From: an uncultured virus (IMG/VR IMGVR_UViG_3300044987_000436)
Lineage: Duplodnaviria; Heunggongvirae; Uroviricota; Caudoviricetes
Virus record (IMG/VR): IMGVR_UViG_3300044987_000436
Length of the DNA: 20,000 nt
Direction: 5' to 3' (one strand)
The notes beneath the pieces are model-generated. The model searched no databases and was not told where the DNA came from. It saw only the letters and a program-made list of their open reading frames with translations. This document shows positions 2,844 to 10,038 of the stretch, one piece after another. The translations under genes were made by a program, and so were the position numbers. Position 1 is the stretch's first letter; every line of letters begins with the position of its first letter.

Positions 2844-3776
2844 ATGGCAATTTCACGCGCACAACTACTTAAAGAACTGCTCCCCGGCCTGAACGCATTG
2901 TTTGGTCTGGAATATGCTCGCTACGGCGAAGAGCACAAGGAAATCTACGAGACTGAGAAATCAGAGCGCTCGTTTGAAGAAGAAACCAAGCTGTCTGGCT
3001 TCGGTGCTGCACCAGTGAAGAACGAGGGCCAAGCCATTGCTTATGACAATGCGCAGGAAGCCTTCACTGCACGTTACAGCCACGAGACCATTGCTCTGGG
3101 CTTCTCGATCACTGAAGAAGCGGTCGAAGATAACCTGTACGACAGTCTGTCGGCTCGTTACACCAAGGGTCTGGCTCGCGCTATGGCCTACACCAAACAG
3201 GTCAAAGCTGCTGGCGTTATCAATAACGGCTTCAGCGGTTCGTACCTCGGCGGTGACGGTGTGTCGTTGTTTGGCGTCAACTCTTCCAGCGCACGCGTGG
3301 GTCACCCACTCGTCAACGGCGGCGTTAACTACAACAGCCCCACCACTGGTGTTGATCTGAACGAAACCTCGCTGGAAAATGCTGTGATTCAAATCGCTGC
3401 ATGGACTGATGAGCGTGGTCTGCTGATCGCCGCTAAGCCACGCAAGATGATTGTGCCGCCTGCGCTGCAATTCGTTGCTACCCGTCTGTTGGAAACCAAC
3501 CTCCGCGTTGGCACTGCTGACAACGATATCAACGCGTTGAAGAACAACGGTTCGATCCCTGAAGGCTATGCCATCAACCACTTCTTGACCGACAGCAATG
3601 CTTGGTTCCTGATGACTGATGTGCCAAACGGCCTGAAGCACTTCGAGCGTACAGCTCTGAACAACTCCATGGACGGGGATTTCGACACGGGCAACGTCCG
3701 TTACAAGTCCCGCGAGCGTTACAGCTTTGGCTGGAGCGATCCATTGGGTGCTTGGGGCTCGTCCGGTTCGTCTTAA
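2844..3776 (+). CDS. major capsid protein (Mu-like gpT / HK97-fold family)
   Basis: AAGGAG SD; N-terminus MAISRAQLLKELLPGLNALFGLEY and C-terminal DFDTGNVRYKSRERYSFGWSDP are typical of MCPs of uncultured aquatic phages; strong codon bias; followed by a terminator. Confidence 0.9.
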   Translation: MAISRAQLLKELLPGLNALFGLEYARYGEEHKEIYETEKSERSFEEETKLSGFGAAPVKNEGQAIAYDNAQEAFTARYSHETIALGFSITEEAVEDNLYDSLSARYTKGLARAMAYTKQVKAAGVINNGFSGSYLGGDGVSLFGVNSSSARVGHPLVNGGVNYNSPTTGVDLNETSLENAVIQIAAWTDERGLLIAAKPRKMIVPPALQFVATRLLETNLRVGTADNDINALKNNGSIPEGYAINHFLTDSNAWFLMTDVPNGLKHFERTALNNSMDGDFDTGNVRYKSRERYSFGWSDPLGAWGSSGSS

Positions 3777-3786
3777 TTGACGGCTG

Positions 3787-3821
3787 AGTAAGTTAGGGTT
3801 GGGGGTTCCCGGCCGCTTACT
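3787..3821 (+). other. hairpin in the MCP 3' UTR
   Basis: AGTAAGT(3787-3793)/GCTTACT(3815-3821) outer stem, 3-nt bulge, GGTTGGG(3797-3803)/CCCGGCC(3808-3814) inner stem. The G-U pairs favour the + strand. Confidence 0.5.
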
Positions 3822-3823
3822 GG

Positions 3824-3849
3824 AAAAGGCACCTTCGGGTGCCTTTTTT
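3824..3849 (+). terminator. Rho-independent terminator after the MCP (possibly bidirectional)
   Basis: AAAAGGCACC-TTCG-GGTGCCTTTTTT: perfect stem, C(UUCG)G tetraloop, U tract, A tract on the 5' side. Confidence 0.92.
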
Positions 3850-3850
3850 G

Positions 3851-3878
3851 TTGACACACTTTGAAAAAGGTGTATATT
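3851..3878 (+). promoter_or_regulatory. sigma70-like promoter
   Basis: Perfect -35 TTGACA (3851-3856), 16-bp spacer, -10 TATATT (3873-3878), directly after the terminator. Predicted TSS about 3884-3885. Confidence 0.65.
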
Positions 3879-3884
3879 GCAAGT

Positions 3885-3960
3885 ACTCCGGGTCTTCCGG
3901 TGTATCAGACAGTCCCGGCTGACGACATGCAGACTGATACGCCTATCTTGCATGTAAGGA
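3885..3960 (+). ncRNA. structured RNA leader with two pseudoknots; candidate Mu-gpT-DE-like motif
   Basis: GGTGTATCAG(3899-3908)/CTGATACGCC(3934-3943); CAG(3910-3912)/CTG(3919-3921); CCGGG(3888-3892)/CCCGG(3914-3918); ACATGCA(3925-3931)/TGCATGT(3949-3955). Lies downstream of a gpT-like MCP gene and abuts the SD AAGGA (3956-3960). Confidence 0.65.
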
Positions 3961-3967
3961 ACCAATC

Positions 3968-4546
3968 ATGGCATTGACCACATTCTCCGGCCCAGTCTCT
4001 TCCCTCAACGGCTTCATCGGCGGCACTGCGACCTCCCCCATCACTCTTACCACGGCCAGCAACGTGTCTGAGTCGTACGCCACATCCTCCGCTACCACTG
4101 GCGATACCCGCCTGTCGTACAACCGCTTGGCTTTTACCTCTACAGGTTCTGGCGAGACCATCCGTGCCCTGACTCAAGTCACAGGTGTTGGTGGCGCTAC
4201 GGGCGGCACAATCAATGGTGCTCACGTTAGCTTGAGCGTCAACGGTTCGGGCACTATTTCCGGTGCCGGTAACGCTCTTCGCGCTACTCTGGGTGGTACA
4301 TCTACAAACCCCGGCGGAACATTGGCAGCTATTCAAGCTGACTCCAACTTTGCTACTGGTGGTACTTGGACTAACAGTTCATTCATCCGCTTTACAAACA
4401 GCGGAACAGGCGTTATTCCTAACTTGTTCAATGTCCCAGCCGCTATGGTTGTGGCTGATGTGGTCGCAGACTCCTCCCACACAATTAAAATTGTGGACAG
4501 CGCCGGTACTGCGTACTACCTGATGGCAACTACTACTGCGCCTTAA
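3968..4546 (+). CDS. virion structural protein, putative head fibre/decoration protein
   Basis: TAAGGA SD; N-terminal MALTTFSGPVSSLNGF motif commonly seen after the MCP in such phages; Thr/Gly/Ser-rich beta-type sequence. Confidence 0.65.
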   Translation: MALTTFSGPVSSLNGFIGGTATSPITLTTASNVSESYATSSATTGDTRLSYNRLAFTSTGSGETIRALTQVTGVGGATGGTINGAHVSLSVNGSGTISGAGNALRATLGGTSTNPGGTLAAIQADSNFATGGTWTNSSFIRFTNSGTGVIPNLFNVPAAMVVADVVADSSHTIKIVDSAGTAYYLMATTTAP

Positions 4547-4718: not shown

Positions 4719-5178
4719 TGTTAAGTCGCAACACGGCGGGGCTTCCGGCTTGATGGTTTCGTACCGTACTCGCCTTAAAGGCGCGGTTGTTTTTCCTTTT
4801 TCTGGTGCTACAGAGTACACCGTTTTGGTAGACGACATTAGTATTAGCGGAACTTACTCAAGAGCCACTACTATGGCGACGGTTACCGCGACAAACCACG
4901 GCCTAAAAGCAGGCGATTGGGTTTATTTGGACTGGGATTTGACGGATAACCCGTACCAAGTTCAAACAGCCGCTACTGCAGACACGTTTATTGTGACTGT
5001 TGCGAATTCTGGTGCAGACAGCGGAAATGTCACGGTATGGAATGATGTGCTGCTGCAATTGGACGCATCAAATCAAACGGCGTACAGTGTGCCGATTCCC
5101 GGCGAAGGTGTTCTTGCCCATTACGGCATACGCCTTTTCTTGGGAGCCAACACGCACATTACGGTGTTCTATGGCTAA
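4702..5178 (+). CDS. hypothetical virion protein with an inserted beta-domain
   Basis: GGAG SD; framework MQYDVKS..RTRLKG ... IPGEGVL...GI......TVFYG with a central TVTATNHGLKAGDWVYL...YQV...DTF module. Confidence 0.7.
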   Translation: MAMQYDVKSQHGGASGLMVSYRTRLKGAVVFPFSGATEYTVLVDDISISGTYSRATTMATVTATNHGLKAGDWVYLDWDLTDNPYQVQTAATADTFIVTVANSGADSGNVTVWNDVLLQLDASNQTAYSVPIPGEGVLAHYGIRLFLGANTHITVFYG

Positions 5179-5425
5179 ATCACCAGCATGGACACGCAAA
5201 GAAGGCAAGTCGGAGAAGGGCGGGCTCAACGCGAAGGGCCGAGCTTCCTACAACAAGGCCAACCCCGGCAAACCCGGTCTGAAGGCCCCTCAACCCGAGG
5301 GCGGCAGCAGGCGCGACTCTTTCTGTGCCCGGATGTCCGGCATGAAAAAGAAGTTGACCAGCGCCAAAACAGCCAAAGACCCGGACAGCCGCATCAACAA
5401 AAGCCTTCGGGCTTGGAAATGCTGA
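5171..5425 (+). CDS. small basic hypothetical protein (DUF6321-like), 84 aa
   Basis: ATG 5171 overlaps the upstream gene end; WTRKEGK..KGGLNAKGRASYN ... RRDSFCARM.GM ... DPDSRINKSLRAWKC. DUF assignment is from memory. Confidence 0.75.
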   Translation: MAKSPAWTRKEGKSEKGGLNAKGRASYNKANPGKPGLKAPQPEGGSRRDSFCARMSGMKKKLTSAKTAKDPDSRINKSLRAWKC

Positions 5426-5426
5426 T

Positions 5427-5669
5427 ATGAGCACGCCCGAAATCCTTACCGCCCGTGAACTTGCCACCCATGCTGCTGATATTAAGCACATGCAGGAGGA
5501 CATGGACAAGATGCTTGAGAGCATGAAAGCCATGCAGGTCACGCTGACATCCATAAACTCCACCCTGTCTGAAGCCAAAGGCGGTTGGAAAGTCCTGATG
5601 TTGGTTGGCGGCGCGGCTGGCACGGTTGGCGCTGGGATCGTACAGTTGGTCCATTGGTGGAGCAAGTAA
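5427..5669 (+). CDS. small membrane protein (coiled coil plus C-terminal TM helix)
   Basis: Heptad-rich N-terminal half, then GGWKVLMLVGGAAGTVGAGIVQLVHWW; coupled to both neighbours. Confidence 0.7.
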   Translation: MSTPEILTARELATHAADIKHMQEDMDKMLESMKAMQVTLTSINSTLSEAKGGWKVLMLVGGAAGTVGAGIVQLVHWWSK

Positions 5670-6046
5670 TGCCCAGTAGCTCCAAAAAACAACACAATTT
5701 CATGGCGGCTGTGGCCAATAACCCAGCATTTGCCAAGAAAGCAGGCGTCCCACAGTCCGTGGGACAGGACTTTACCAAGGCCGACAAGGGCCGCAAATTT
5801 TCAAAAGGTGGTGACACTATGGCTTCCAAAATGAATCCCGGCTTCATGGCAATGATGGCTAAGAAAAAAGGTGCTGACGCACCTGCCAAGGGCAAAGACG
5901 CTCTGGCCAAACACGCGTCCAAGCCTGCTTCCAAAGCACACGCGGGCCTCAAAGCCGGTGGCATGGCCAAGGGTGGCGGTATCGAGTCCAAGGGTAAAAC
6001 CAAGGGCACGATGATTAAGATGAAATCTGGCGGCAGAACCTGCTAA
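5669..6046 (+). CDS. small Lys/Gly/Met-rich basic protein (125 aa)
   Basis: TAATG overlap at 5667-5671 with GGAG SD; MPSSSKKQHNFMAAVANNPAFAKKAGVPQSVG; several xxxGG motifs. Confidence 0.75.
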   Translation: MPSSSKKQHNFMAAVANNPAFAKKAGVPQSVGQDFTKADKGRKFSKGGDTMASKMNPGFMAMMAKKKGADAPAKGKDALAKHASKPASKAHAGLKAGGMAKGGGIESKGKTKGTMIKMKSGGRTC

Positions 6047-6057
6047 AAGGAAAGATC

Positions 6058-6639
6058 ATGGCGACTAAACCGGCAATCGTTACCAAAAAGCAGCTCGAAG
6101 ATTCGGGCTTTGATAATCTGCGCGATTACTTGAACGCTGAGCGCGGTTTGACTCGCCGTGACGGCCAAGTCGCAGTTCGCAAAGGTGAGATGGACATCAA
6201 GAGTCCTGCTGAAAAACGCAGCGCTACCCGAATGGCTGATGTTGCCGCGCAGAAACCTAGCGCTGAGCGCCGCAGCGACACGCGTTTGCGCGATTCGCAA
6301 AGTGCGTCTGCTTCCTCAAACGACGCCAATATGCTGCTTGTAGATTCTGCCGTGAAAGAGATTGGTGGCGGTCGTTCAGGTGGCCGAGGCGGTGCTGAAG
6401 CCGGTGAAGGGTCTGAGTCAAAACCCGCAGGTGCCTTTCGTGGCACGCGTTCTGACCCAAAACCTGAAGGTGCTTATCGCGGCACGCGTTCTGACCCAAA
6501 ACCTGAAGGTGCTTATCGCGGCACGCGTTCTGATATGAAAAAAGGTGGCGCAGTCAAGAAGATGGCTTCTGGCGGTTCCGCGTCCAGTCGTGCTGACGGT
6601 ATTGCCCAGCGCGGCAAGACCAAAGGACGGGTCTGCTAA
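6058..6639 (+). CDS. basic low-complexity protein with 13-aa tandem repeats
   Basis: AAGGA SD; C-terminal MKKGG..KKMASGG...RADGIAQRGKTKGRVC. Confidence 0.75.
   Translation: MATKPAIVTKKQLEDSGFDNLRDYLNAERGLTRRDGQVAVRKGEMDIKSPAEKRSATRMADVAAQKPSAERRSDTRLRDSQSASASSNDANMLLVDSAVKEIGGGRSGGRGGAEAGEGSESKPAGAFRGTRSDPKPEGAYRGTRSDPKPEGAYRGTRSDMKKGGAVKKMASGGSASSRADGIAQRGKTKGRVC
6421..6533 (+). repeat. in-frame 39-bp tandem repeat, about 2.9 copies
   Basis: Units 6421-6459 (diverged), 6460-6498 and 6499-6533 (identical over 35 nt): aaacctgaaggtgcttatcgcggcacgcgttctgaccca, encoding KPEGAYRGTRSDP. Confidence 0.95.
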
Positions 6640-6915
6640 ATGATGGCAAGCCGAGGCATGGGGGCAATCTCCCCCAGTAAGATGCCCGGCGGCAAAAAGA
6701 AAGCCCGTCGTGATGACACTGACTTCACCCAGTTCAAAGAGGGTGGTAAGGTCAACGCGGCGGGTAACTACACGAAGCCAAGTCTTCGCAAGAAGATACT
6801 GAGCCAAGTCAAAGCCGCCGCGACTCAGGGTACGGGAGCTGGAAAATGGTCAGCCCGTAAAGCGCAGCTTGTGGCCAAGAAATATAAAGCCGCAGGCGGC
6901 GGGTACAGGGACTAA
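6640..6915 (+). CDS. small basic protein with a YTKP.LR...WSARKAQL...YK..GGGY domain
   Basis: Starts directly after the upstream stop; AAAGGA upstream; recognisable conserved motif. Confidence 0.75.
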   Translation: MMASRGMGAISPSKMPGGKKKARRDDTDFTQFKEGGKVNAAGNYTKPSLRKKILSQVKAAATQGTGAGKWSARKAQLVAKKYKAAGGGYRD

Positions 6916-6916
6916 A

Positions 6917-7150
6917 GTGAAAGCGCCGCAGAAATCCCTCAAGGACTGGGGCGACCAGAAGTGGCGCACCAAGTCTGGCAAACCGTCTTCCAAGACGGGG
7001 GAGCGGTATTTGCCCGAGAAAGCCATACAATCACTCAGCCCTGCCGAGTACGCTGCAACCACAAAGGCCAAGCGTGCCGGTAAAGCAGCAGGCAAGCAGT
7101 TCGTGGCGCAGCCCAAGCGTATCGCAAAGAAAACAGCAGGGTTCAGATAA
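6917..7150 (+). CDS. small basic protein (DUF5872-like), 77 aa
   Basis: GTG 6917 one base after the upstream stop; QKSLKDW..QKWRTKSGK....GERYLP.KA...LS..E...T...KR......KQFV.QP. DUF assignment is from memory. Confidence 0.7.
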   Translation: MKAPQKSLKDWGDQKWRTKSGKPSSKTGERYLPEKAIQSLSPAEYAATTKAKRAGKAAGKQFVAQPKRIAKKTAGFR

Positions 7151-7851: not shown

Positions 7852-8244
7852 GTGGGAAACCGTTTCTCCTCTGGCAAGAACTCGATTGCCGAGTGTGATC
7901 GGTGCGGGTTTCGGTTCAAGCTGACTTCCCTGCGGAAAGAGACCGTCAAGACGAAGATACGCGAGATTCTGGTGTGCAGCAGTTGCTGGGACCCGGATCA
8001 ACCGCAGTTGATGTTGGGCATGTATCCGGTAGATGACCCGCAGGCGGTTCGTGATCCCCGCCCAGACCGCAGCTACGTGGCCTCTGGCCTGTTGGCGGAT
8101 GGTTACCAAGGGCAGGGTAGCCGGAACATCCAGTGGGGCTGGAATCCGGTCGGAGGTTCTCGGTTTTTTGATGACGCACTGACGCCAAACCTCTTGGCTT
8201 TAGGCGTGCAAGTTGGTACAGTCAGTATACAAATTGGAGCGTAA
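7852..8244 (+). CDS. hypothetical protein with CxxC...CxxC putative Zn ribbon
   Basis: GTG directly after the upstream stop; ECDRCGF ... VCSSCWDPDQPQL ... DPQAVRDPRPD. Confidence 0.75.
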   Translation: MGNRFSSGKNSIAECDRCGFRFKLTSLRKETVKTKIREILVCSSCWDPDQPQLMLGMYPVDDPQAVRDPRPDRSYVASGLLADGYQGQGSRNIQWGWNPVGGSRFFDDALTPNLLALGVQVGTVSIQIGA

Positions 8245-8245
8245 A

Positions 8246-8434
8246 ATGGCATTCAAATCAGCAGCAGACGGCATAGCCTCCAAAGGCAAGACCAAGGGCA
8301 AGAATCTGGGCGACAGCGGCCCCTCCGTAGCCATTCAAAAAGGTGGCAAGGGCGGTAACGGTGGCAAGACCAACGAAGAGATGCTCAAACTGGGCCGTGG
8401 TCTGGCCAAGGTCGCAAACCAAAAGCGAGGTTAA
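8246..8434 (+). CDS. small basic protein (62 aa)
   Basis: GGAG SD, ATG 8246; MAFKSAADGIASKGKTKGKNLG. Confidence 0.75.
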   Translation: MAFKSAADGIASKGKTKGKNLGDSGPSVAIQKGGKGGNGGKTNEEMLKLGRGLAKVANQKRG

Positions 8435-8436
8435 TC

Positions 8437-8682
8437 ATGGCTACAAAGAACAACTTGTCGGCTGCGTCCTACGCCAAGCCCCACACCATGTCAGGTAAAC
8501 CCGTGACTGTGGAAGCCAATCCGGGTAAGCTGCCAAACCGCAGCAAGCTCGATACCGTTGACGCAACTGTGGGCAACATCAGCAAGTCCGCCGGTAGCGA
8601 GACAACCAAAACTGCGGGCACTGTGACTCGCGGTAACGGCTGCGCTACCAAGGGCATCACCGCCCGTGGGCCAATGGCATAA
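8437..8682 (+). CDS. small basic protein (81 aa)
   Basis: GAGG SD; C-terminal TRGNGCATKGITARGPMA. Confidence 0.75.
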   Translation: MATKNNLSAASYAKPHTMSGKPVTVEANPGKLPNRSKLDTVDATVGNISKSAGSETTKTAGTVTRGNGCATKGITARGPMA

Positions 8683-8695
8683 CTAGGGTTTACCC

Positions 8696-9409
8696 GTGAA
8701 CTATACGCAGCTCGTCGCGGCCATTGAGTCGTACACGGAGAACCAGTTCCCAGTCACGTACTTGGCGGACGGCTCTACCGTGTCCAGCACACAGCAGATT
8801 AACCGTCTGATTGAGCAGGCCGAGCAGCGTATATACAACTCGGTGCAGTTCCCGTCGATTCGCAAGAATGTGACCGGCAGCATCACGGCCAACAACAAGT
8901 ATTTGGCTTGCCCAAACGACTTTCTGGCGGTGTATTCCATTGCGGTAATTGACTCGCTGGGTGTGTATGAGTTCTTGCTGAACAAAGATGTGAACTTCAT
9001 CCGCCAAGCATATCCCCAGCCAACAGATACGGCGCAGCCCAAGTATTACGCATTGTTCGGGTCGCAGACCAACGACCCAAATGAGTTGACGTTCATCCTT
9101 GGCCCCACACCGAACCTAACGTATGGTGTTGAGCTTCACTATTACTACTACCCTGAGTCAATTACAACTGTTGCCTCTGGTCAGACATGGCTGGGCGATA
9201 ACTTTGACTCTGTGCTGCTGTATGGCAGCTTGGTCGAGGCGTACACGTACATGAAGGGTGAAGCTGACCTTGTTACGCTGTACAACACCAAGTACAACGA
9301 AGCCCTTGCTCTGGCTAAACGACTTGGTGATGGACTTGAGCGGTCCGACAGTTATAGAAGCGGGCAATACCGTGCTCCGCCTTTGCCCCGAAACAATGGG
9401 GTCGCGTAA
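8696..9409 (+). CDS. second adaptor/connector-like virion protein
   Basis: GTG start; MNYTQLVAAIESYTEN..IEQAEQRIYN ... PKYYA ... GPTP ... LLYGSLVEAYTYMKG; helix-beta-helix adaptor layout. Confidence 0.65.
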   Translation: MNYTQLVAAIESYTENQFPVTYLADGSTVSSTQQINRLIEQAEQRIYNSVQFPSIRKNVTGSITANNKYLACPNDFLAVYSIAVIDSLGVYEFLLNKDVNFIRQAYPQPTDTAQPKYYALFGSQTNDPNELTFILGPTPNLTYGVELHYYYYPESITTVASGQTWLGDNFDSVLLYGSLVEAYTYMKGEADLVTLYNTKYNEALALAKRLGDGLERSDSYRSGQYRAPPLPRNNGVA

Positions 9410-10038
9410 TGGTAAGGCACAATCGCCAAGCAGCCAAAGCCTTAGGACTACCCAAGTGTTACGGCTCTCCCTGCCATAAACACCCAGAGCTTGAGGGCTT
9501 TCGTCGAGTGTCCGGCGCATGTGTTGCCTGTGCCAAGCAAAATCTGCAAAACAGTCGAGCGGCAAATTTAGAACGTACAAAAGTGCAACAGGATAAGGAC
9601 CGCATCAAGCTGTTGCAAAACCCAGTTTATGTTGCTAAGAAACGCATTAGTGATACTGCCTACCGAGCCGCAAACAAGGCGCAATGCCGTGCAGTTATCG
9701 AGGCATGGAGCGCACGCAACCCCGAAAAGGTAAAAGCGTACGCAAAGAAGACCAAAGCGTTTAACTCTGGTCGTGTGCTTGCACACACTGTAAAACGCCG
9801 CTTGGCAAAAATAAAGCGCACCCCCGTGTGGCTAACATCAGATGACCACTGGATGATTGAGCAAGCATACGAGTTGGCCGCAGTCCGTACCAAAATGTTT
9901 GGTTTTGCTTGGCACGTTGACCATATCGTCCCGTTGCAAGGTAAACTCGTCTCAGGACTTCACGCCCCCAATAACTTGCGTGTCATACCCGGCGCTGAGA
10001 ATATACGGAAGTCCAACCACTTTCAGGTAGCTACATGA
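9409..10038 (+). CDS. free-standing HNH (homing) endonuclease
   Basis: C-terminal WHVDHIVPLQGKLVSGLHAPNNLRVIPGAENIRKSN (HNH motif); N-terminal Cys/His cluster (PCHKH..CVAC); basic helical linker. Confidence 0.88.
   Translation: MVRHNRQAAKALGLPKCYGSPCHKHPELEGFRRVSGACVACAKQNLQNSRAANLERTKVQQDKDRIKLLQNPVYVAKKRISDTAYRAANKAQCRAVIEAWSARNPEKVKAYAKKTKAFNSGRVLAHTVKRRLAKIKRTPVWLTSDDHWMIEQAYELAAVRTKMFGFAWHVDHIVPLQGKLVSGLHAPNNLRVIPGAENIRKSNHFQVAT

Follow-up and report, generated by a model that had tools for sequence, protein, structure and literature searches.

T4 gp32 binds nucleic acids and spreads cooperatively, and the preQ1 and SAM-II/V riboswitches are pseudoknots that cover the Shine-Dalgarno sequence. 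In the accessible part of PMC10690425, gp32 is described as autoregulating via a pseudoknot in its own leader, and the accessible part of 10.1101/2022.12.13.520362 reports that the P22 scaffolding protein, when free, represses its own translation, with its N-terminus implicated. The leader RNA described here lies in a 20,000-nucleotide stretch of DNA from an uncultured member of the Caudoviricetes (the window). It resembles the T4 gp32 operator, so far as that source describes it, in being a pseudoknot in a phage gene leader that would be bound by the gene's own product; it differs in that the window gene encodes a predicted capsid-surface trimer, whose binding is putative. The window product and the P22 scaffolding protein belong to different protein classes, and their likeness, within the accessible part of that preprint, is autoregulation by a head-assembly protein. 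As in the preQ1 and SAM-II/V riboswitches, the 3′ strand of a pseudoknot abuts or takes the first Shine-Dalgarno bases, but the window RNA has no Rfam match, far fewer conserved bases and a structural rather than a metabolic gene behind it.

The closest described RNA is the orphan motif Mu-gpT-DE (RF03012), which is filed in Rfam as an sRNA of 53 positions. The motif reportedly came from the Weinberg 2017 survey, and we know of no function for it. Its Rfam model has 9 pairs and ends at the AUG, without the third junction pair and the start-codon pairing described below. The part of Rivas (PMC7657543) available to us counts 9 pairs for Rfam, 11 for ZWD and 12–13 for CaCoFold, so that the third junction pair may already be drawn among the ZWD or CaCoFold pairs. 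The term 'gpT' is absent from the accessible main text of Weinberg 2017. In the accessible literature, including bioRxiv 10.64898/2026.09.22.753630, we found neither an account of the long form nor a function, and no match to the long form in the accessible supplements of PMC10690425 and PMC10085705; further files of PMC10690425 and PMC5737381 may hold one.

Genomic context of the leader

The features around the leader are as follows.

2844..3776, plus strand: major capsid gene, with Pfam matches to Phage_capsid_4 and Mu-like_gpT
3828..3849, plus strand: terminator-like hairpin ending the capsid transcript (6-bp G+C stem, UUCG loop, six U; found by eye)
3851..3878, plus strand: sigma70-like promoter (−35 at 3851-3856, −10 at 3873-3878; start inferred near A3885)
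3955..3960, plus strand: TAAGGA, seen in the sequence 7 nt 5′ of the ATG at 3968, which we take from its consensus to be the Shine-Dalgarno sequence
3968..4546, plus strand: putatively regulated gene for a 192-aa predicted homotrimeric capsid-decoration or head-fibre protein, with the N-terminal arm MxTTFxGP

The window capsid is 61% identical to that of Pelagibacter phage HTVC023P and 53% identical to that of CRP-902, and by this measure the window phage belongs with HTVC023P, DSL-LC04 and CRP-901/902. An earlier sequence-only reading of the locus had proposed a terminator, then a promoter, then an RNA leader, and this order was borne out. Hairpins resembling 3828-3849 occur in most relatives, and a terminator scan did not list the window copy. 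The promoter has 11 of 12 consensus matches, with 0.6 sites expected in shuffles. Among the long forms of the element, TAnnnT stands 6–20 nt 5′ of it in 133 of 173, a count that has no background control, and pseudoknot 1 most commonly starts 8–9 nt past the −10-like box, leaving 1–3 free 5′ bases. A lake metatranscriptome contig starts at 3879, but the RNA runs exist as contigs only and this is no evidence of a start site.

A second hairpin lies between the capsid stop and the terminator (3787-3821, plus strand; 7-bp outer and 7-bp inner stems, GGTT loop); in a short-motif screen of 402 loci, only L009 and L018 have one like it. Endonuclease-like or other open reading frames were seen by eye between the capsid terminator and the leader promoter in L003, L006, L007, L014, L020, L027 and others, and this gap looks like an insertion hotspot. 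Further downstream among the virion genes, 9409-10038 (plus strand) is an Endonuclease VII-like open reading frame (PHROG 1035) and probably a homing endonuclease. A run of small Lys/Gly/Ala-rich open reading frames occupies 5000-7150 and 8213-8682 (plus strand), of which 5000-5425 matches DUF6321 and 6058-6639 contains a threefold repeat of about 12 residues.

Helices of the leader RNA

Within the leader, the following elements can be drawn.

3888-3892/3914-3918, plus strand: pseudoknot 1, 5 bp, its 5′ strand near the inferred 5′ end
3899-3908/3934-3943, plus strand: P2, a 10-bp stem with one G.U pair
3899..3908, plus strand: P2 5′ strand, in which G3908 is the G of the first GAC
3908..3934, plus strand: core with GAC triplets at 3908-3910, 3921-3923 and 3932-3934
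3910..3921, plus strand: P3 hairpin, 3-bp stem 3910-3912/3919-3921, its loop carrying the pseudoknot 1 3′ strand at 3914-3918
3924..3931, plus strand: 8-nt loop closed by C3923-G3932 and holding the pseudoknot 2 5′ strand
3925-3931/3949-3955, plus strand: pseudoknot 2, 7 bp, with 3925-3930 the conserved part
3934..3943, plus strand: P2 3′ strand, which in short forms is itself the Shine-Dalgarno sequence

All helices that the sequence-only reading had listed are present in the letters of the window, and it had overlooked one extra pair, C3923-G3932. The full topology, a 10-bp stem with both pseudoknots, arose in 0 of 3000 dinucleotide shuffles of 3885-3960, against 151 of 3000 for the 10-bp stem alone. 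Nested folding of the leader alone is unremarkable (z 0.62), as expected where pseudoknots make the structure. The last base of the pseudoknot 2 3′ strand (3955) is the first base of TAAGGA, so that this strand not only adjoins AAGGA at 3956-3960, as had been noted, but overlaps the Shine-Dalgarno sequence by one base.

For comparison, we assembled 410 loci (400 viral loci, 9 annotated regions and the window), of which 402 have a capsid end; 349 show the next gene by its N-terminal arm, giving 262 distinct leaders. Parsing on nested stems and GAC triplets only, with pseudoknots excluded, found 223 leaders, and removal of 5 of these rows by eye as mis-parses left 181 long and 37 short forms. 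Once 14 divergent leaders had been added by eye to the long class, the 262 leaders divided into 187 long, 8 intermediate and 37 short forms, with the RNA absent from the remaining 30. Among 163 distinct long-form cores, pseudoknots 1 and 2 have at least 4 bp in 157 and 161, with means of 5.33 and 6.11 bp compared to 3.53 and 4.03 bp with partners shuffled; in neither case did any of 60 shuffles reach as high.

A MAFFT alignment of 75 leaders was drawn from the 155 having both pseudoknots and is therefore biased towards pseudoknots. On it, 90.0% of cells pair (71.7% in shuffles), 23 of 26 pairs show changes on both sides, and the covariation score is 0.518, compared to 0.186 in shuffles and at most 0.104 when slid. 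P2 is compensatory at 10 of 10 pairs, with 95% of cells paired; pseudoknot 1 changes on both sides at 5 of 5 pairs; and the middle pair of P3 is AU in 44, UA in 18, CG in 7 and GC in 6 of 75. Pseudoknot 2, which the sequence-only reading gave 7 bp, holds for six pairs, all of them compensatory (6 of 6; 3925-3930 strand), but not for the seventh, 3931/3949, which is paired in 33 of 74 with no compensation in this alignment. The model built from the 75 leaders matched 89 of 100 further loci, and in the model-fitted alignment 13 of 14 nested pairs are compensatory. G.U exceeds A.C by 100 to 5 among 1267 P2 cells, which points to an RNA of the plus strand. A loose descriptor scan was dropped, having given 105 reverse-strand matches in 402 loci, and blastn of the leader against cultured phages gave no matches.

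The four helices first drawn from the window alone, namely the 10-bp stem, the 3-bp hairpin and the two pseudoknots, thus covary among homologous leaders, and comparison of relatives confirms the double-pseudoknotted leader RNA as real. The competing pairings fared differently. All three are present as letters, but shuffled controls in relatives scored as high in 442 of 500 cases for CAGTC 3910-3914/GACTG 3932-3936, in 160 of 500 for CCGG 3888-3891/3897-3900 and in 50 of 300 for the read-through pairing TGCAAG 3878-3883/CTTGCA 3947-3952. No conserved alternative fold was found among these three.

A pseudo-three-fold junction core

The C of each GAC triplet pairs with the G of the next, giving a three-way junction of G3908-C3934, C3910-G3921 and C3923-G3932 with one unpaired adenine per strand (A3909, A3922 and A3933). 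The first pair is GC in 137, AU in 21, GU in 4 and UA in 1 of 163. The third, C3923-G3932, is CG in 86 and UA in 3 of 89 in the model-based count (UA in loci L033, L072 and L263), and with only three such swaps its support is real but thin. The second, C3910-G3921, is invariant in 89 of 89 and never covaries cleanly; a clade of four has a shifted version of it, in which either a G-C swap or a change of register is possible. The adenines A3909, A3922 and A3933 are kept in 85, 88 and 89 of 89. Three GAC triplets occur in 190 of 223 parsed leaders, but the parse favours GAC, and the model-based counts are therefore preferable. The loop closed by the third pair measures 7–11 nt in 218 of 218 leaders and 8 nt in 171, whereas linkers outside the core range from 3 to 21 nt in the parsed leaders.

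Some leaders depart from this pattern. In the clade L042, L047, L051 and L077, the first two triplets are replaced by CAG and TCAC with all helices kept. Leaders L287 and L311 have only two GAC triplets, around a UUCG hairpin, and are possibly a degenerate form. By eye, L161 (Pag-Yong1/MinM2, about 3448-3512) has a similar helix connectivity without the GAC core: a 5′ pseudoknot, an 8-bp stem with the Shine-Dalgarno sequence and a pairing with the AUG. The long-form model does not match it.

Relation to Mu-gpT-DE

The sequence-only reading had suggested that the element may be a member of Mu-gpT-DE and had proposed an Rfam scan. When run, the scan gave no RF03012 match in the window at the gathering threshold or at E ≤ 10, and the mark for membership of at least 49 bits was not reached; RF03012 likewise matched 0 of 20 homologous loci and 0 of 5 records. 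A second motif, Polynucleobacter-1 (RF01718), was rejected with 0 of 5 records and no match in the window. At the equivalent site in Roseobacter phage CRP-902, RF03012 scores 72.3 bits.

The window element stands 3′ of a Mu-like gpT capsid gene (PF10124 on 2844-3776), as Mu-gpT-DE requires, and the two RNAs have in common their position, the class of the downstream gene, P2, P3 and three GAC triplets. Of the traits of Mu-gpT-DE, the outer stem, bulged A and inner hairpin are also present, and a Shine-Dalgarno sequence in the outer stem, a 5-bp inner hairpin and a length of about 53 nt are absent; in the window, the Shine-Dalgarno sequence lies 12 nt past P2, P3 has 3 bp and the element is about 70 nt long. 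Compared with Mu-gpT-DE, the window RNA has a longer P2, a shorter P3 and an extra 5′ pseudoknot, and its pseudoknot 2 reaches just before the Shine-Dalgarno sequence, whereas the short Mu-gpT-DE forms reach the AUG. Across the sample, P2 is mostly 8–9 bp in long forms and 3–6 bp in short forms. A loop-to-linker pseudoknot in short forms was considered and rejected, many of them having a plain tetraloop.

One-pseudoknot intermediates occur in L331, L333, L336, L342, L349, L281 and L283. Three short forms score only about 13 bits with the long-form model, which misses the rest, and this model and RF03012 do not cross-detect; the case for kinship is thus made by position, core and intermediates. 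In a midpoint-rooted tree of the 136 capsids kept out of 251, the long, intermediate, short and absent forms interleave, with 19 changes over 136 tips, a number that has no shuffled control. These comparisons indicate that the short, intermediate and long forms are built on one pseudo-three-fold three-way junction core and that the window RNA is a larger, uncatalogued form of the catalogued orphan. Membership of Mu-gpT-DE therefore holds as kinship by position, core and intermediates, but not as a match to RF03012.

Contact with the ribosome-binding site

Pseudoknot 2 of the long forms overlaps the Shine-Dalgarno sequence by at least 1 nt in 104, abuts it in 36 and leaves a gap of 1–5 nt in 21 (n = 161). 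In short forms, the Shine-Dalgarno sequence is itself the P2 3′ strand, and a linker of 7–9 nt pairs with the start codon and second codon. This pairing amounts to at least 4 bp in 37 of 37 short forms, with a mean of 5.01 bp compared to 4.32 bp in shuffles, 0 of 2000 of which were as high, although the background is high and 84 of 181 long forms also reach at least 4 bp. The linker follows the second codon: GCC is found with Ala in 26 of 37 and CCC or CCT with Gly in the other 11, and one more case, L414, has GGC with Pro. A column-wise count on a MAFFT alignment recovers the linker/codon swap in only 3 of 32 cells, owing to register shifts between sequences. Codon 2 ends in T in 35 of 37 short forms and in 53 of 181 long forms, a bias that fits start-codon pairing but is confounded by codon bias and kinship.

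These contacts bear on two readings in which the RNA would act other than on initiation. Self-cleavage, processing or destabilising the leader, would suit the compact double pseudoknot, and the window has CUGACGA at 3919-3925, presumably the hammerhead core motif. The hammerhead core contains invariant CUGANGA and GAAA, which are found here in 47 and 9 of 218 leaders, and the hammerhead was rejected. In HDV-like ribozymes the P1 3′ strand follows P3; here the 5′ strand instead pairs within the loop of P3 and Rfam gives no match, and this class was rejected as well. No ribozyme in Rfam matches, linker lengths vary freely, and each pseudoknot can be lost singly. A free structural or packaging RNA resembling phi29 pRNA, with the pseudoknots formed between molecules, would account for an RNA with its own promoter and a three-way junction next to head genes, but no terminator follows the element (the next is listed at 4771), and 30 of 262 relatives lack it. 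The sequence-only reading had raised both ideas. Since only three unpaired bases are conserved and the short forms pair in cis with the AUG of their own mRNA, we regard a ribozyme as very unlikely and a free RNA as scarcely credible.

The downstream gene and its protein

The 3968-4546 protein has no match in Pfam, PHROG or PDB, and an Atlas search returned only viral clusters without names. It is predicted as an intertwined homotrimer with a score of 0.97 (best control, 0.00), by a mark that 20 of 30 solved pairs and 1 of 23 single chains reach and that applies only roughly here; contacts agree at ≥95% between homotrimer runs, with pLDDT ≥94, and the monomer model is poor (pLDDT 54). The 314 complete downstream proteins fall into 28 clusters whose only common feature is the arm MxTTFxGP, the conservation of which is partly circular because the genes were selected by it. 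The one basic position of the arm is R or K in only 155 of 307. The largest cluster matches the Pam1 cement protein 7eel_H by profile (E 1.1e-6), and its model (pLDDT 81) has 7eel_H as the top fold match, followed by KHP30 and GP4 capsid entries; the window's own protein is in another cluster and has no 7eel_H match. We infer that the 3968-4546 protein docks on the capsid from where its gene lies, from the arm it shares and from how DSL-LC04 and Pag-Yong1 are annotated.

The RNA belongs with this gene rather than with the capsid gene. A distance of more than 300 nt lies between the capsid gene and the RNA in 57 of 187 long, 1 of 8 intermediate and 7 of 37 short forms, so that 65 of 232 RNA-bearing leaders keep it next to the downstream gene despite insertions. 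One copy is found in each of three of five complete genomes, the three with a model match. A gene-blind pattern scan of metagenomes gave 119 matches, of which 102 stand in front of the arm motif and 4 more, by eye, in front of the equivalent gene class; another 7 are cut, and 6 lack P2 by eye. The short-form pattern gave 49 matches in 185,579 prokaryote genomes, 47 of them parsed, one on a 544 kb Rhodobacteraceae contig with a capsid gene beside the RNA. The 14 that are well formed by eye all precede the phage decoration gene class, and none of these 14 precedes a metabolic gene. The RNA is missing from 30 of 262 leaders although the gene has the arm.

This distribution also bears on whether the RNA is a riboswitch-like sensor, in which the three-adenine junction would bind a metal ion, a small molecule or some other conserved protein of phage or host, such as the capsid protein. 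This would match the riboswitch plan of an invariant core, a periphery that varies and an expression platform at the Shine-Dalgarno sequence, and the core stays constant while the downstream protein varies. Only nine bases are conserved, however, the well-formed genome matches stand before one phage gene class in every case, and a conserved alternative fold was not found. We consider such a sensor rather improbable.

Discussion

Our results support a model in which the leader RNA is a cis-acting translational control of some kind, an OFF element, to which we give a probability of roughly 0.8. That one core is wired in two ways, each reaching the initiation site, speaks for repression of translation in cis. 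With the three-way junction and pseudoknot 2 formed, the 30S subunit would be kept off the Shine-Dalgarno sequence and, in short forms, would also be excluded from the AUG; pseudoknot 1 may be an accessory that clamps the transcript made from this promoter at its 5′ end. The sequence-only reading had spoken of a switch coupling head assembly to downstream expression. That the RNA is the leader of the downstream gene and touches its initiation site agrees with this proposal, but the alternative conformations invoked for it are unsupported.

As to what would stabilise the OFF state, our leading candidate, held tentatively, is the trimer made by the gene itself. The trimer is suggested as ligand by the constant symmetric core that precedes a trimer gene, and the short-form P2, at only 3–6 bp, probably needs a stabiliser. 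Free decoration trimers would accumulate when mature capsids are saturated or absent, and their three identical N-terminal arms, normally docked on the capsid, could then read the three equivalent GAC/A positions. A more specific version, which we put forward as doubtful, is that the three docking arms of the decoration trimer read the three-fold RNA junction as a mimic of the capsid's three-fold site. The accessible part of PMC7602432 describes decoration proteins as typically trimers at three-fold sites, some of them attached via an N-terminal arm, and several as monomeric off the capsid. Three points weaken the case for the trimer as ligand: the arm is short and weakly basic, 30 leaders have no RNA, and some free decoration proteins are monomeric.

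Long forms, with a P2 of 8–9 bp and two pseudoknots, could also fold without a ligand. The element might then be a gate that forms after transcription, so that ribosomes could load only while the RNA is nascent or briefly open, with pseudoknot 1 shielding the 5′ end from decay and the adenines playing a structural part. The leader of the MS2 maturation gene is a slow-folding gate and offers a working likeness. The apparent stability of the long forms, the usual placing of pseudoknot 1 just past the −10-like box with few free 5′ bases and the diversity of the partner proteins are all consistent with a gate of this sort. Conversely, the triplets persist on the capsid tree where peripheral helices come and go, a simple hairpin would be enough for occlusion, and the short forms look too weak alone. 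We therefore judge a ligand-free gate unlikely, and retain the trimer-stabilised OFF element as our working model.

In summary, an orphan Rfam motif is given a more complete structure, its target gene and a role that can be tested, and the RNA family is larger than the Rfam model detects, at 187 long, 8 intermediate and 37 short forms among 262 leaders. The module is an unusual one for an RNA, a minimal symmetric junction to which pseudoknot clamps are fitted interchangeably, and its presence in the cultured phages HTVC023P, HTVC027P, DSL-LC04 and CRP-902 makes its function testable. If the trimer binds, this would be a new type of feedback that matches a capsid-surface protein to finished heads. 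On the more doubtful reading, with the junction as a mimic of the capsid site, it would be a symmetry-matched RNA–protein switch that counts spare capsid parts, one that some of the commonest aquatic phages would have retained although their fibre and cement domains are many and unrelated.
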